64,000 nucleotides of DNA from Chiloscyllium plagiosum (lineage: Eukaryota), in contig NC_057751.1 of assembly GCF_004010195.1 (NCBI RefSeq), positions 9,183,611 through 9,247,610 on the forward strand, given 5' to 3'. Every line of letters starts with the position of its first letter. The stretch's first letter is position 1. The translations under genes were made by a program, and so were the position numbers. Below are positions 1,021 to 64,000 of the stretch, one piece after another. The notes below the pieces were generated by a model. That model had not been told where the DNA came from. It saw nothing but the letters and a program-made list of their open reading frames with translations, and ran no database searches.

Positions 1021-2405
1021 AGATATTACTAATCTCAAGGCCTTCAGGCAGATCTTTCTCAGGATCTCATTGCCAGAAGTGAACCTGCCACATTGGCTCA
1101 TTCTTACATGGTTCTGGCTAATCAGTGTGTGGGTGAAGGTGAGGATATGATCCACTTTTGTTCAATCAAATCTCTGTTACTAAAGGCCTTAATAAATAAA
1201 GGCCTCAACAAAGAATAATTTTTCAGTTGCCATTCAGCTTCTTTGTGACAGTCAAACAAGGTACATTATCTCAGTAATTTATGGATGACTGGAATGTGCA
1301 GGCCTAATCTCATTCAGGTGAAGACTCTCTCTCACAGTCAAAGGTGTTTTCAATGTGTCCTACTTTTTTTTAACTGTCTCACCATATTTTTTAAACCATT
1401 CAATATTCTTTTGTTGGTTCTGAAGAAGTTGCTTAATTTTTTCCTTCTTTATTTTGTAAATGATTTTATTGAGAAAAAGATTTTGATTTTTTTACAAAAC
1501 TGCAAAATAGTATAACAATCTTATATTATAACAACAGTAACAGTAAACAAACTGCTACTCTACTCCACAACAATTTTAAAAGAAAAAGAAAGAAAACAGA
1601 AAACCATTTGCAAACTACAAATCAATAAATAAATTAAACAAAAAAAAAAATTAAATCAAATTGAACCAAGGCAAATTAAATTAAGTTAGAACACTCAGCG
1701 CAACCCCACCAAAGCTCCCCATCACCAAGAGCATCAGTTGGCATCGCCATTTGTATTCGTAATTCCTCCTCCCAGGGGCCCCCGGCCCACCAGACACAGC
1801 CCTTACAGCTATGCAAAGGCCCTAACCAATATAGCCGACAAGTCTGTGTCTATGTAGTTCAAAAAGGACCGCCACATCCTAGAAAAGAGTTACATTTGTT
1901 ACCATACTTGTAAGGAAGTTCAGGGGGATGTGCTTCACAACTAACCCTTGCCACCCAGAGAGCCCTGGGGGATTCTCCGACACCAAACTGATCAGAATGT
2001 TCTTCCTCGCACAAAATTAAAGAATATTAAACAGTTTCTTCCCATGCGTTTCCAAAGAGGGGAGATTCAGCAAACCCAAGAGGAGGGACACCAGATGTAC
2101 CTTGACCTTGGTTCCCAAGATCCCTTCCAAGACACTCTCTATAGCGCCCCAATATCTACGAAGCTTGTGGCATGACCACAAGCAGTGAGTAAGAGTACCA
2201 ATACCCATTTTACATTTGGAGCACATTAGAGAGGCTGCTGTCTTAAATTTCACAAGCCACTCCAGTGCCAAATAAGTCCTGTGGAGTACCTTCCGGTGCA
2301 TAGCCTGTGTCCTATTGCAGATCAAAATCCTCCTTATGTTCTCCCAAATATCCTCCCATGCCTCTGAAGAAATCTCCACCCCCAATTTCTGACTCCAGAT
2401 CCAGC

Positions 2406-2500
2406 CTTTCCTGAAGAAGGGCTTATGCCCGAAACGTCGATTCTCCTTCTCCTTTGATGCTGCCTGACCTGCTGCGCTTTTCCAGCAACACATTTTTATG
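2406..2500 (+). mobile_element. 95 bp PLE terminal mini-insertion with hammerhead core
   Basis: TSD tccag(a/g)tccagc at 2394-2405 and 2501-2512. Same family as the 3' end of the PLE at 3365-4175. Confidence 0.85.
2411..2438 (+). ncRNA. Minimal hammerhead ribozyme core
   Basis: CUGAAGA-A-GGGC(UUAU)GCCC-GAAACGUC. Confidence 0.75.
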
Positions 2501-4016
2501 TCCAGGTCCAGCACAGCCACTCCACGTCCTTCGAGACATTACCTCCTAATAAATGATAGAGGGTGCTGACTGAGAGAGGACCCATGGACCAAAGTACTCT
2601 CCTCTTCACATCAGACTACATTAACCATTAATGTAGTCTTTTTCTGTATAAAGTCCCGAATCTGAAAATAACAAAAGAGGTCCCTCCTAGGTAGTTCATA
2701 TTTCTGGCTCAGCTGTTCAAAAGACATCAAAACCTCCCCCTCAAATAAGTCTCCCAGACAGGAAACCCCTCGAGGTTCCCAGAGCCTAAAGCCAGGATCC
2801 ATCGATCCTGGCCAGAATCCTGGCATTCCTACTATGGGAGTAAAAGGGGAAGTTTTTCATGAATTCCCCTCACATCATTCTCCATGCTTTAACCGTGTTA
2901 AGGCCAATGGGGTTTCTGCAATGTTCCTTAACAGTCCTCATCTTGTCCATAAACACCAAATTGATGAGGGGGCATTTTGCCTCGGAGGCCTCCATGTCCA
3001 GCAAAATTGACCTCAGGTCCTGGCAAGCCCAATCAGCCACATAGGATAATAGGGAACTTAATTGATATTTCTTAAAATCTGGAAGGTCCACACCCCCCAT
3101 CCCCTGCGGAAGCTACAATTTAGCAAACCTAATAAGAGGCTGCCTATGATGCCAGATAAAAGAACCGAGCCAATTGTTAAGCCTCTGTAGTGCTTGCCTT
3201 GGCAGCATCAAAGGGAGCATTCGCATGGGATATAAAAAAGGAGGAAGAACATTCATTATGACCAGAGCTATTCTACCCAACCAGGATATCAGAAGATCCT
3301 CCCAGCGCTGAAGGTCTTGTCTTATCTTCTCTCGCTACTGTACAAAATTAGCCTTATATAATTGTTCCACCACAGAACACGCCAGATGGCCTCCTTGTTT
3401 AGAGACCGCAATTTCCCTTCCCACGTGCTTAAAGATGCCCTCCAACGCATCTCATCCACATCCTGCACCTCCGTCCTCAGACCCCACCCCTCCAACCGTA
3501 ACAAGGACAGAACGCCCCTGGTGCTCACCTTCCAACCAACCTTCGCATAAACCAAATCAGCCGCCAACATTTCTGCCACCTCCAAAAAGACCCCACCACC
3601 AGGGATATATTTCCCTCCCCACCCCTTTCCGCCTTCCGCAAAAACCGTTCCCTCCGTGACTACATGTCAGGTCCACACCCCCCTACAATGCACCCTCCCA
3701 TCCGGCACCTTCCCCTGCCACCATAGGAATTGCAAAACCTGCGCCCACACCTCCTCCCTCACCTCCATCCAAGGCCCTAAAGGAGCCTTCCACGTCCATC
3801 AAAGTTTTACCTGCACATCCACCAATATCATTTATTGTATCCGTTGCTCCCAATGCGGTCTCCTCTACATTGGGGAGACTGGACGCCTCCTAGCAGAGCG
3901 CTTTAGGGAACATCTCTGGGACATCCACACCAATCAACCACACCGCCCTATGGCCCAATATTTCAACTCCCCCTCCCACTCTGCCGAGGACATGGAGGTC
4001 CTGGGCCTCCTTCACC

Positions 4017-4038
4017 NNNNNNNNNNNNNNNNNNNNNN
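4017..4038. other. Assembly gap (Ns); further gaps at 8917-8949 and 10396-10561
   Basis: Runs of n. Confidence 1.
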
Positions 4039-4094
4039 CACCCCCACCCTCCTCTCACTTATCTCTCCACCCTTCAGGCTCTCTGCCTGTATTC

Positions 4095-4122
4095 CTGATG
4101 AAGGGCTTTTGCCCGAAACGTC
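4095..4122 (+). ncRNA. Minimal hammerhead ribozyme core at PLE 3' end
   Basis: CUGAUGA-A-GGGC(UUUU)GCCC-GAAACGUC. Confidence 0.8.
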
Positions 4123-4301
4123 GATTTTACTGCTGCCTGAACTGCTGTGCTTTTCCAGCACCACTCTAATCTAGACTTATATAATTGATCGAAGGATGAG
4201 GTGATTAAAAATGCCTAAGTACGGGAAACCTCCCTGTGAGCACCTGAAAGGGAATCAGATTCCGCCCCCAAGATCCGGTACTCGAACAAGACCCTCCACA
4301 G

Positions 4302-10182: not shown

Positions 10183-10740
10183 AGCCGAAAATGTGTTGCT
10201 GGAAAAGTGCAGCAGGTCATGCAGCATCCAAGGAACAGGAGAATCGACGTTTCGGGCATAAACCCTTCTTCAGGAATGAGGAAAGTGTGTCCAGCAGGCT
10301 AAGATAAAAGGTAGGGAGGAGGGACTTAGGGGAGGGGCGTTGGAAATGCGATAGGTGGAAGGAGGTCAAGGTGAGGGTGATAGGCCGGAGTGGGGNNNNN
10401 NNNNNNNNNNNNNNNNNNNNNNNNNNNNNNNNNNNNNNNNNNNNNNNNNNNNNNNNNNNNNNNNNNNNNNNNNNNNNNNNNNNNNNNNNNNNNNNNNNNN
10501 NNNNNNNNNNNNNNNNNNNNNNNNNNNNNNNNNNNNNNNNNNNNNNNNNNNNNNNNNNNNNGATGCAATAAATGATGTGTGTGGAGGTGCAGGTGAATTT
10601 GTGGCAGATATGGAAGTATCCCTTGGGGCCTTGGAGGGAAGTAAGGGGAGAGGTGTGGGCGCAAGTTTTACATTTCTTGCGGTTGCAGGGGAAGGTGCCG
10701 GGATTGGAGGTTGGGTTGGTGGGGGGTGTGGACCTGACGA
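10183..10740 (-). mobile_element. Penelope-like element fragment (gap-containing) with hammerhead core at 10246-10273
   Basis: PGTFPCNRKKCKTCAHTS...FTCTSTHIIYCI; reverse complement of the end reads ctgaagaagggtttatgcccgaaacgtc. Confidence 0.88.
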
Positions 10741-10849
10741 CAGTTGTTAACAGGCAGAAGGTCTTTGTCGTCGATAAATGGTCATGAGTCCACATGTTAC
10801 TTGCTTTCAAACAAGCAGTAAATTAGGACTGCATATTATATGGGTTATA

Positions 10850-11928: not shown

Positions 11929-12146
11929 GAGTCAAAAAGTGTGGCATGGAAAAGCACAGCGGGTCAGGCAGCATCCAATGAACAGGACAATCGACGTTTT
12001 GAGTATAAGCTCTTCATCAGGAATGAAGAGCTTATTCTCAAAATGTCAACTCTCCTACTCCTCAGATGCTGCCTGACCAGCTGTGGTTTTCCAGCACCAC
12101 ACATTTTGACTCTGATCTCTATCATCTGCCGTCCTCACTTGCTCCT
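11929..12146. mobile_element. Fold-back pair of PLE termini with decayed hammerhead cores
   Basis: Inverted arms around ~12021. Degenerate TSD acttgcacaaatcca (11914-11928) / acttgcatagattca (12147-12161). Confidence 0.8.
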
Positions 12147-22584: not shown

Positions 22585-22764
22585 AAAACAGAAAATGCTG
22601 GAGATCACAGTGGGTCAGGTCTAGATGACTCTCAGCTCTGATGAAGGTCATCTCGATTCAAAACGTTGGCTTCTTTCTCTCCATGGATGCTGCCTGACCC
22701 GCTGTGATCTCCAGCATTTTTTGTTTTCAATTCAGATTCCAGCATCTGCAGTAATTTGCTCTGA
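22585..22764. mobile_element. Fold-back PLE terminal insertion (older family), decayed hammerhead at 22638-22667
   Basis: aaaatgctggagatcacag..ggtcagg is inverted against cctgacccgctgtgatctccagcatttt; degenerate TSD at 22571-22584 / 22765-22778. Confidence 0.7.
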
Positions 22765-22804
22765 CATTGCCGATCTTACCAGGAATAGGCTATTTTATCC
22801 CTAG

Positions 22805-22903
22805 TCTAGATTAGAGTGGTGCTGGAAAAGCACAGCAGGTCAGGCAGCATCCGAGGAGCAGGAAAATCGACGTTTCGGGCAAAAACCCTTCATCATGAAT
22901 GGC
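22805..22903 (-). mobile_element. 99 bp PLE terminal mini-insertion with hammerhead core (22869-22896)
   Basis: Perfect 15 bp TSD ctattttatccctag at 22790-22804 and 22904-22918. Confidence 0.9.
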
Positions 22904-23244
22904 CTATTTTATCCCTAGCAATATGTAAGGATTAATAAGAGATCTTATAGTCAAGAATCATCCAGGAGGCAGCAATCACAACATGGCAGAATTTAAAATT
23001 CAGTTTGAGGGAGAGCATTTTACGTCTCAAACCAGTGTACTAAACTTAAAGAAGGGCAATTACAGAGGTATGAAGAAAGAGTTGTCTAAACAGGGTTGGG
23101 AAAACAGATGAAGGTTAAGGTCAACAGATGAGGAGGAGCAGATATTTGAACAGATATCACATAACTCTTGGCAAAAATTTATTTTAGTCAAAGAAGCAGG
23201 ACTTGTTGAGAAGGATAAACCACCAGTGGTTAACAGTGGCTAAG

Positions 23245-23311
23245 CATTCCGGATGAAGGTTTATGCCCGAAACGTCGACTCTGTTGCTGTTCAGACGCTG
23301 CCTGACCTGCA
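23245..23311 (+). mobile_element. Truncated PLE terminus with mutated hammerhead core (23250-23276)
   Basis: cggatga-a-ggtttatgccc-gaaacgtc...gctgcctgacctgc. Confidence 0.75.
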
Positions 23312-24347: not shown

Positions 24348-25820
24348 GTGCTTTTCATGATTTATATGAATGATTTAGATGTGAACACAGGAGGTATTGT
24401 TAGTAAGTTTGCAGATGACACCAAAATTGGAGGTGGAGTGGACAGCGAAGAAGGTTACGTCAGAGTACAATGGGATCTTGATCAGATGGGCCAATGGGCT
24501 GAGGAGTGGCAGGTGGAGCTTAATTTAGATAAATGTGAGGTGCTGCATTTTGGAAAGGCAAATCAGGGCAGGACTTATACACTTAATGGTAAGGTGCTAG
24601 GGAGTGTTGCTGAACAAAGAGACCTTGGGTGCAGGTTCATAGTTCCTTGAAAGTGGAGTCTCAGGTCGATAGGACAGTGAAGTAGGCGTTTAGTATGCTT
24701 TTCTTTATTGGTCAGAGCATTGAATAGAGGAGTTGGGAGGTCATGTTGCACCTGTACAGGACATTGATGAGGCCACTTTTGGAATAGTGTGTGCTATTCT
24801 GGTCTCCCTGTTAGAGAAAGGATGCTGTGAAACTTGAAAGGTTCAAAGTTTGTGAGAAGATTTGTAGCTTGGGTGCCGTTGTTGTGGTTCTATTTGCCGA
24901 GCTGGGAATTTGTGTTGCAGACATTTCGTCCCCCGTCTAGGTGACATCCTCACTGTTTGGGAGCCTCCTGTGAAGCGCTTCTGTGTTGTTTCCTGTGGCA
25001 TTTATAGTGGTTTGTCTCTGCTGCTTCTGGTTGTCAGTTTCAGCTGTCCGCCGCAGTGGCTGGTATATTGGGTCCAGGTCGATGTGTTTGTTATAGAAGC
25101 ATGGCACTCATCCACAGATTCTATCAACAAACACATCGACCTGGACCCAATATACCAGCCACTGCAGCAGACAGCTGGAACTGACAACCGGAAGCAGCAG
25201 AGACAAACCACTATAAATGCCGGAGGAAACAACACAGAAGCGCTTCACAGGAGGCTCCCAAGCAGTGAGGATGTCACCTAGACAGGGGACGAAACGTCTG
25301 CAACACAAATTCCCAGCTCGACGAACAGAGCCACAACAAACTTGAAAGGGTTCAAAAAAGATTTACAAGGGTGTTGCAGGAGTTGGAGGTTTTGAGCTAT
25401 AGGAAGAGGTTGAATAGGCCAGGGCTGTTTTCCCTGGAGCGTCAGAGGCTAAGGGGGGACCTTAGAGAGGTTTATAAAATCATGAGGGACATGGATAGAG
25501 TAAATAGACAAGTTGGGGGAGTCCAGAACTAGAGGGCATAAGTTTAGGGTGAGAGGGGAAAGATTTAAAGGGACCTAAGGAGCAATTGTTTCACGTCGAG
25601 GGTGATGCATGTATGGAATAAGCTGCCAGAGGAAGTGGTGGAGGTTGGTACAATTACAATATTTAAAAGGCATCCAGATAGGTACATGAATAGGAAGGGT
25701 TTACAGGGACATGGGCCAAATGCTAGCAAATGGGACTAGATTAATTTAACATTTCTGGTCAGCATGGATGAGTTGGACTGAAGGGTCTGTTTCCATGCTG
25801 TGCATCTCTCTGACTCCATG
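24348..25820 (+). mobile_element. CR1 3' half interrupted by a PLE fold-back
   Basis: YMNDLD, KFADDTKIGG, KCEVLHFGK; 3' tail ggactgaagggtctgtttcc...tgactccatgac. Confidence 0.92.
24848..25337. mobile_element. Fold-back Penelope-like insertion (second PLE family; ~210 bp arms) with hammerhead cores at 24920-24953 (-) and 25265-25298 (+)
   Basis: Encodes EAWHSSTDSINKHIDLDPIYQPL, resembling the C-terminus of PLE GIY-YIG domains. TSD aaacttgaaag(g)gttcaaa at 24830-24847 and 25338-25356. Confidence 0.88.
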
Positions 25821-45741: not shown

Positions 45742-45961
45742 CTGAAAATGTGTTGCTGGAAAAGCGCAGCAGGTCAGGCAGCATCCAGGGAACAGGAGAA
45801 TCGACGTTTCGGGCATAAGCCCTTCTTCTTCATTCCTGAACAAGGGCTTATGCCCGAAACGTCGATTCTCCTGTTCCCTGGATGCTGCCTGACCTGCTGC
45901 GCTTTTCCAGCAACACATTTTCAGCTCTGATCTCCAGCATCTGCAGACCTCACGCTCTCCC
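45742..45961. mobile_element. Fold-back pair of PLE termini with hammerhead cores (45803-45828 minus, partial; 45836-45863 plus)
   Basis: ~85 bp near-perfect arms; TSD cta(ca/tg)ttgttttatg at 45727-45741 and 45962-45976. Confidence 0.92.
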
Positions 45962-56043: not shown

Positions 56044-56244
56044 TAGCAGGTTTTGAGAAGATTTGTAGCTCAGGTTGAGGTTCTGGATGTAGGTTTGCTT
56101 GCTGAGCTGGAAGGTTCATTTTCAGACATTTTGTCACCATACAGGGTAACAGCTTCGTCCGGAGGCCCACTGAAGATGTCACCTAATATGGTGACGAAAC
56201 GTCTGAAAATGAACCTTCCAGCTCAGCGAGCAAACCTACATCCA
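56044..56244. mobile_element. Fold-back PLE terminal insertion (third family) inside a SINE
   Basis: Perfect 13 bp TSD gacatttaagagt at 56031-56043 and 56245-56257; inverted arms; shares gagaagatttgtagct with the insertion at 24848. Confidence 0.88.
56170..56203 (+). ncRNA. Hammerhead ribozyme core with perfect 6 bp stem II
   Basis: CA-CUGAAGA-U-GUCACC(UAAUAU)GGUGAC-GAAACGUC-UG. Confidence 0.82.
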
Positions 56245-58914: not shown

Positions 58915-59012
58915 ATCCAAGGTAGACAAGCAGGAGGCTTGAAGAACACAGCATGCCAGGCAGCATCAGGTGGTGGACAAGTAATGTTTCGTGTGTGACC
59001 CTTCTTCAGAAT
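58915..59012 (-). mobile_element. ~95 bp PLE terminus with hammerhead-like core (58983-59009)
   Basis: Reverse complement ctgaaga-a-gggtcacacac-gaaacatt...gatgctgcctggcatgctgtgttctt. Confidence 0.7.
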
Positions 59013-62245: not shown

Positions 62246-62340
62246 GTCCTGATGAAGACTTAAGTCGAAAAGTCAACTCTCTTGCTTCTCAGATGCTGCC
62301 GTACATGCTGTGCTTTTACCAGTGCTACACTTATTATTGG
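62246..62340 (+). mobile_element. ~90 bp PLE terminus with hammerhead core (62249-62274)
   Basis: CUGAUGA-A-GAC(UUAA)GUC-GAAAAGUC followed by gatgctgcc...tgctgtgctttt. Confidence 0.75.
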
Positions 62341-63167: not shown

Positions 63168-64000
63168 GAGATGACACCAAAATCGGAGGTGTAGTGGACA
63201 GTTAAGGAGGTTACCTCAGAGTTCCACAGGATCTTGATCAGAAGGGGTTTAGATTAGAGTGGTGCTGGAAAAGCACAGCAGGTCAGGCAGCATCCGAGGA
63301 GCAGGAGAATCAATGTTTCGGGCAAAAGCCCTTCATCAGGATCCTGATGAAGGGCTTTTATCCGAAATGTCAATTTTCCTGCTCCTCGAATGCTGTCTGA
63401 CCTGCTGTGCTTTTCCAGCACCACTCTGATCTAAACTCTGGTTTCCAGCATCTGCAGTCCTCACTTTTGCCTTCTTGATCAGAAGGGCCAATGGGCCGAG
63501 GAGTGGCAGATGGAGTTTAATGTAGATAAACATGAGGTGTTGCATTTTGGAAAAGCAAATCAGGGTAGGACTTATACATTAATGGTAAGGTCCTAGGGAA
63601 TGTTGCTGAACAAATACATCTTGGAGAGCAGGTTCATTGTTTTTTGAAAGTGGAGTTGCAGGTGGACAGGATAGTGAAGGCAGCATCTGATATGCTTTCC
63701 CTTACTGGTCAGAGCAGCGAGTATAAGAGTTGGAAGGTCATGTTGTGACTGTGTAGGACATTAGTTAGACCACTTTTTGAATAGTGTGCACAATTCTAGT
63801 CTCACTCCTATTGGAAGGATGGTGAAAAACTTGAAAGGATCCAGAAAAGATTTAAAAGGATGTTGCCAGGAGTGAAAGGTTTGAACAAAGGAAGAGGCTG
63901 AATAGGCTGGGGCTGTTTTTCTTGTAGTGTTGGAAGCTGAGGTTTATAAAATCATGAGGGACATGGATAGGGTAATAGACAAGGTCTTTTCTCTGGGGTG
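63168..64000 (+). mobile_element. CR1 3' half (runs off the window) interrupted by a PLE fold-back
   Basis: DDTKIGG, WAEEWQMEFN, LERIQKRFKRMLPG. Confidence 0.9.
63247..63472. mobile_element. Spacer-less palindromic pair of PLE termini with two back-to-back hammerhead cores
   Basis: Centre cttcatcaggatcctgatgaag; perfect 15 bp TSD tcttgatcagaaggg at 63232-63246 and 63473-63487. Confidence 0.93.

Follow-up and report, generated by a model that had tools for sequence, protein, structure and literature searches.

EN+ Penelope-like elements (PLEs) of the Neptune/Nematis type combine a reverse transcriptase (RT), a carboxyl-terminal GIY-YIG endonuclease, a cysteine linker and a hammerhead ribozyme near the 3' end. 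An optional 30–40-bp tail, head-to-head inverted units, partial tandems, target-site duplications (TSDs) of 8–17 bp and solo pseudo-LTRs (pLTRs) complete the list of traits that they have in common with the repeats described here (PMC8557442; PMC3846280). The minimal hammerheads of metazoan PLEs are mostly single motifs, with some opposite-strand pairs, an arrangement also seen in the present case (Cervera and De la Pena 2014, PMC4209133). In vitro, both DNA strands are cut and extended in the system of the anole Poseidon element PAc (Frangieh et al. 2024, PMC11167929). Its RT starts at two internal sites, which gives the tail, and uncut RNA is the main template (PMC11167929). The Penelope element of D. 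virilis has an internal Inr/DPE promoter located in its pLTR (PMC2377424). The family studied here, its minimal hammerhead, its tail and its inverted heads are already known (PMC4209133, PMC8557442, PMC3846280). The completion of the PLE cycle, the formation of pseudo-LTRs and inverted heads and the role of the hammerhead are stated to be open in the texts of PMC8557442, PMC11167929 and PMC3846280.

The window analysed is a stretch of 64,000 nucleotides of the Chiloscyllium plagiosum genome (contig NC_057751.1). Positions on the element are counted from the C of CUGANGA, which is 0. The original prediction described insertions of ~95–100 bp, here called minis, that consist of a hammerhead core with its downstream sequence and have TSDs of their own. 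The first is a 95-nt insert of family A (2406..2500, + strand) whose match to the element begins at -3 (2408), preceded by two unmatched bases, and whose 3' end lies at the inner 3' site, about +90. It is bounded by a left TSD copy of 12 bp, TCCAGATCCAGC (2394..2405, + strand), and a right copy with one mismatch, TCCAGGTCCAGC (2501..2512, + strand). The insertion site is a multicopy host repeat, and 11/11 fetched sister copies have a single 9–13-nt stretch between the flanks. The 12-mer is a true duplication because all 11 sister repeats hold it once; the coordinates and the TSD proposed for this insert are correct. Note that its host (window 2017-2538, - strand) is an old multicopy LINE-like fragment with sisters about 85% identical, for which Pfam gave no useful match.

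The second is a 99-nt insert of family B (22805..22903, - strand; ATTC (-4) at 22900-22897), located between two perfect 15-bp TSD copies (22790..22804 and 22904..22918) exactly as predicted. Both of its junctions were recovered with 0 differences in contigs from public sequencing runs, possibly including the sample behind the assembly itself, and no empty allele was listed among those contigs. The predicted size holds for both inserts; many other minis measure 115–130 nt, tail included. Beside the second insert (window 22638-22760) lies a unit of an older hammerhead family, whose stem II is longer and which has a tail of its own. Older hammerhead-bearing families of this kind are common in the genome sample described below and were excluded from the counts.

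Three further units of the window had been proposed to begin at nearly the same point. They seem to start near it, at CATTC (-5) in 23245..23311 (+ strand) and at ATTC in 58915..59012 (- strand), a unit of an older related family, the third being 62246..62340 (+ strand). All three are diverged, and these 5' ends are putative. A search at the ends of 58915..59012 and 62246..62340 found no TSD above 6 nt, and the terminal repeat of 23245..23311, whose normal 3' end is missing, has 6 nt only. An intact hammerhead core is not common to all inserts: it is mutated in 23245..23311 and in 22805..22903, where C3 is changed to A (AUGAUGA).

The window also carries longer copies and inverted pairs of the same units. 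A family B copy (3551..4175, + strand) spans the end of the GIY-YIG endonuclease (E 1.8e-4, slightly below the curated cut-off), a pyrimidine-rich 3' UTR with an N gap and the hammerhead, and shares its 3' end with the 22805 insert. A family A copy (10188..10822, - strand) is composed of an endonuclease fragment, an N gap, the 3' UTR and the hammerhead unit. Head-to-head pairs joined at the hammerhead 5' edge are found for family A (45745..45955, with a 30-35-nt tail on the + arm only) and for family B (63250..63465), and an older pair (11934..12107) has its joint near this edge.

The 2406 insert features a minimal type I hammerhead (2411..2438, + strand), assigned from its sequence with the features given in PMC4209133. 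It is built from CUGAAGA (2411-2417), the unpaired A 2418, stem II GGGC/GCCC (2419-2430), GAAA (2431-2434) and a palindromic ACGU, with a cut predicted after the GUC ending at 2438. CUGANGA, GAAA, NUH, an extra base before stem II and a palindromic helix III are thus all present. An Rfam search with E values up to 1 found no hammerhead, only weak miRNA-like matches to other palindromes. Among these are long near-perfect inverted repeats at window 56101-56227, which also holds a CUGANGA...GAAAC pattern at 56170, and at 25051-25167; both are probably other repeat families.

Each insert corresponds to the terminal unit, a minimal hammerhead plus 60–95 nt, of a Penelope-like element with RT and GIY-YIG domains. 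A 408-aa frame located elsewhere in the 3.56-Gb genome (L184) has the order of EN+ PLEs, RT then carboxyl-terminal GIY-YIG in one frame, with matches to RVT_1 (E 3.8e-5) and GIY-YIG (E 9.4e-4) that are both below Pfam's curated cut-offs. The cysteine linker C-x4-C-xx-C (CHHRNCKTC) is present, and the element is a candidate member of the Neptune clade, which is defined by such a linker and by RT phylogeny. The hammerhead unit follows the 3' UTR in long copies and precedes the ORF start at other loci, and it therefore forms the 5' leader of the element as well as its 3' end. The ORF begins with MPSLKKL, ~30 nt beyond the tail and about 155 nt downstream of the hammerhead core. The unit has two 3' end classes, near +90 and +125, which differ by the 30–40-bp tail that is optional in PLEs (PMC8557442). 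No single gap-free full-length copy was obtained; a 1006-aa frame considered as an intact element was discarded, being mostly assembly gap. An upstream frame, MPETSILLFLG..., runs from inside stem II (element +13 to +95, e.g. L221) to a stop before the main ORF and is a possible uORF; the ORF of the anole element starts at a like place. Long copies L055 (3687-4394, - strand) and L073 (3913-5064, - strand) have short tandem duplications in the endonuclease or linker region, which suggests frequent RT slippage or jumps.

The recurrence of a 5' boundary just upstream of CUGANGA was assessed by plotting endpoints relative to the core in a random sample of 153 segments, each 10 kb long and taken at round coordinates (1.479 Mb after removal of N). 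A total of 315 tail matches was placed; filtering by identity over the tail alone kept 212 that belong to the two young families and dropped 103, and endpoints were called against 73 natural UTR-bearing references. The 212 copies are joined to an inverted arm (112) or to host flank (79), or are censored by gaps or edges (21). In 100 of the 191 called copies the 5' end lies at -12..+6, with the mode at -4 (19 copies). The end rate in this interval, 0.054 per nt, compares with 0.0009–0.011 in seven other bins (Poisson p about 1e-59 against neighbouring bins) and is about 10-fold or more above the bins directly upstream. The boundary is a genuine peak at the ribozyme edge; the smooth distribution of ordinary truncation, which would have counted against the prediction, was not seen in the 1.48 Mb. 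The further claim that the templates were uncleaved at the predicted site is also borne out, the GUC cut site lying inside the inserts.

An alignment break at -4 caused by subfamily divergence was rejected as the source of the peak, which persists in TSD-bounded copies and in family A alone (0.042 per nt at the peak versus 0.001–0.006 in bins from +44 to -300). Twenty-nine young family A copies chosen on +31..+120 only comprise 8 minis, 14 inverted copies and 7 that are long or gap-censored. Both 3' classes (87-97 and 115-125) populate the -4 peak, which is fixed by position and not by length, and length-limited processivity was rejected since two 3' classes stop at one 5' place. The ends are smeared from -10 to +6, and the 27 upstream of -4 call for microhomology or scattered starts. 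The 42/212 copies that continue into the 3' UTR require read-through RNA, a 3' start site or strand transfer. A few host-flanked copies, one of them with an 11-bp TSD, start at or just past the predicted cut (+26..+32; e.g. L144, L039, L065) and were possibly copied from cut RNA; ends at +28..+31 may give a weak hint of self-cleavage.

The minis were probably formed by RT that started inside the element RNA and ran off its capped 5' end, 4 nt before CUGANGA. This reading is favoured because of an excess of G before -4 and of the same start in ORF-bearing copies. The G excess was measured in exact genome-wide counts of family A, with G at -6 excluded so that the most frequent palindromic joint did not enter. 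The base before ATTCC, a start at -4 where the element base is C, is G in 2689 places, A in 924 and T in 722, that is 62% non-template G versus 26% expected. One base further in, before TTCC, G is found in 692/6101 places (11% versus 29% expected), a -3 control in which C and T are inflated by inverted arms. The first 20 G places include 11 with host flank (10 independent), and the TSD abuts the G in all of them. The G is common to the target in 7 of the 10 independent places and is a single extra G in 3, one of them with a mismatched TSD that was identified by eye. Since 7/10 flush Gs are common to the target, the cap signal could be imitated by a preference for GAT at the target or in joining. 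The 9 inverted G places have a single extra G (2), filler ending in G (4) or a G possibly from the arm (3). Among 20 A/T places, 9 are host-flanked and only 1/9 has a TSD of at least 8 nt within 1 nt. The exact -4 class of the random sample has G in 10/22 copies, a proportion that alone is not significant. An eye count of the first 100 of 20,654 family B places gave non-template G in 3 and A in 5; this count is too small to decide and provides no replication, and the G signal is shown for family A only. Capped full-length L1 insertions are marked by an extra G combined with a clean TSD (PMC11702581).

Copies carrying the ORF start are the second line of evidence. Upstream units could be called in 17 of 26 independent loci picked on the ORF start: the start lies at -8..+8 in 8, within the UTR in 6 and at +26..+44 in 3. 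A second unit after 133–418 nt is found in 18 ORF-start loci, joined at -11..-1 in 10 of them (10/18). The initiator consensus is YYANWYY, and TCATTCC at -4 fits it; this initiator-like 7-mer is not rare in the UTR, where 2–3 further occurrences are found in 160–300 nt. No pile of RNA starts was seen among 2307 reads of one poly(A) run, which are mostly read-through (92% continue into other sequence), and a second run gave 0 reads. The loose ends of 106 RNA reads are also at -4 and correspond to genomic copies inside other transcripts.

If the peak is a cap, the RNA of the element would start at the A at -4, a Pol II start, and RT would initiate internally, some 90 or 125 nt downstream of the ribozyme core. 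On reaching the cap it would add a C copying it, which would then be read as G before -4. The resulting short cDNA would be a strong-stop-like product. Joined to the target it would give a mini; two such cDNAs made from the two DNA ends and joined to each other would give a head-to-head pair, and its jump elsewhere on the RNA would give tandem units. The template may be the ORF-bearing mRNA or a short capped RNA of a solo copy, and long copies would come from a strong-stop-like jump or from read-through RNA. The mRNA would open with the four bases of the hammerhead's helix I strand, and cleavage would fall 32 nt from the cap, removing it; most templates would have been uncut.

A different cause of the peak would be that RT, copying a longer RNA from the element 3' end, stalls near -4 at an RNA structure or a bound protein. 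The position of the peak, which abuts the ribozyme, is in agreement with a stall, as are a predicted helix between -5..-1 and sequence downstream of the core, the read-through into the UTR in 42/212 copies and the smearing of ends over about 16 nt. However, RT moves 3' to 5', and both the hammerhead and the downstream partner strand have already been copied when it is at -4. Beyond the stop, the next 60 nt are nearly unstructured (folding energy only -4.6 kcal/mol), the unit folds no better than shuffles (z -0.41), and the G excess at one position is left without reason. A structure-determined RT stop, one of the two origins put forward in the original prediction, is thus a poor fit, and stalling is considered unlikely.

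Minis account for 37 of the 79 host-flanked copies. A TSD of 8–17 bp is found in 13/37 of them, compared to 1/183 shuffled flank pairs and 2/24 long copies (Fisher p 0.03 versus minis). The host-flanked minis of the genome are estimated at about 89,000 (62,000–118,000) and the hammerhead units at about 510,000. SINE-like amplification from solo copies that have an internal promoter and RT start sites, and that give short capped RNAs with the same 5' end, is a variant of cap run-off with another template. The roughly 89,000 host-flanked minis are consistent with such amplification, as are the Penelope pLTR with its known internal promoter (PMC2377424) and the paucity of long copies in family B of the random sample (7/81 versus 26/74 in family A), although the thinner family B references may hide long copies. 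The shortage may thus reflect some amplification from solo copies or the reference set. A mini-only lineage, on the other hand, was not found. Every one of the five tail subfamilies contains minis alongside long copies, and so does the group left unassigned. In a test of 151 copies the nearest neighbours of 38 minis are 11.9 mini, 9.2 long and 16.9 inverted for class sizes of 38/42/71, the mini share being close to chance. The tail variant of the 2406 insert is also common to long copies, and the anole RT required RNA beyond the start sites (PMC11167929). The subfamily table and the nearest-neighbour test on these 151 copies show neither a lineage of its own nor diagnostic changes for the minis. 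A separate SINE was rejected as minis and long copies belong to common subfamilies, and the discrete non-autonomous mini-element suggested at first finds no support. Amplification of the minis from solo copies is held to be improbable.

Processing of the RNA, whether by hammerhead self-cleavage, at a splice junction or through a circular RNA, is very improbable as the origin of the boundary: 8 host-flanked ends at +26..+32 are found around the predicted cut (Poisson p 0.002 before inspection), an intron of D. virilis ends at helix I (PMC4209133) and the junction is repeated in some tandem deleted units, but cleavage predicts +28 and not -4, the 8 ends include on inspection at least 2 internal deletions and 1 small inverted piece, and the minis are monomers with flanking TSDs. 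A splice-junction boundary was rejected separately, as there is no peak at the upstream AG (about -26) and no common upstream exon was seen.

Run-off at a capped 5' end can be extended to a tentative scheme of PLE replication, to which we attach clearly less confidence than to run-off itself. Replication might proceed by a target-primed strong-stop step in which the 95–130-nt leader is copied to the cap before RT jumps to the remainder of the RNA. Where the jump fails, minis and head-to-head pairs would be left; where it succeeds, the pseudo-LTR would be rebuilt, and the hammerhead at the cap could act as a self-decapping switch or as the landing end for the jump. The footprint of a homologous strand transfer that was looked for, a tandem duplicated core or a clear UTR/tail chimera (1/66), was not found. 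Should the peak mark the cap, the short copies seen most often would be complete for the first 95–130 nt of the RNA and not random truncations, the genome itself would map the start site, and the ribozyme would sit where one cut removes the cap. Each of the roughly half a million units estimated for the genome would be a possible promoter.

Minus-strand strong-stop DNA of LTR elements is a short first cDNA that begins internally and reaches the 5' end of the RNA; it is tRNA-primed and is not integrated. The short product proposed here differs in being target-primed and inserted in large numbers. Full-length L1 insertions have, as here, an extra G at the capped 5' end and a precise TSD, whereas L1 primes at the RNA 3' end (PMC11702581). 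No report of a cap-marked 5' peak or of a strong-stop product of PLEs was found in the mostly open-access main texts searched; supplementary Fig. S2 of PMC11167929 contains genomic end coverage that may bear on novelty. The two internal start sites of anole PAc parallel the two 3' end classes found here, and its template is likewise uncut, but PAc belongs to another clade and its ORF starts from inside stem II instead of about 155 nt after the core; neither a mapped RNA 5' end nor run-off insertions appear in the text covered (PMC11167929).

Non-LTR retrozymes are also non-coding, PLE-derived and provided with a type I hammerhead (Li et al. 2026 preprint 10.64898/2026.07.22.740005). Their unit averages 363 bp in one chondrichthyan, and they are defined as tandem repeats, whereas the minis are dispersed monomers with TSDs (10.64898/2026.07.22.740005). 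The two or more tandem hammerhead units of a retrozyme are not found in the minis, which occur singly or as head-to-head pairs. At L201, L204, L210, L225 and L230, units of about 330–380 nt with internal deletions are arranged head to tail. They are composed of UTR end, hammerhead, tail and ORF start, with one and the same junction at -86 in L210, in L230 and, in two places, in L225. These units look like non-LTR retrozymes arising from the element and are a closer match to them than the minis.

The hammerheads of metazoan PLEs and those described here have in common the core, the extra base between 9 and 10.1, the G10.1-C11.1 pair and the palindromic 15.2-16.2, while stem II has 4 bp here versus 7–8 (PMC4209133). 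Single motifs were regarded in that work as probable truncated PLEs and cleavage with circularisation was proposed, whereas the templates of the present copies were mostly uncut and the ribozyme is apparently cap-proximal (PMC4209133). In EN+ PLEs, short copies have been read as 5' truncations or recombination products; here they display a peak at one position and an extra G (PMC8557442; PMC3846280).
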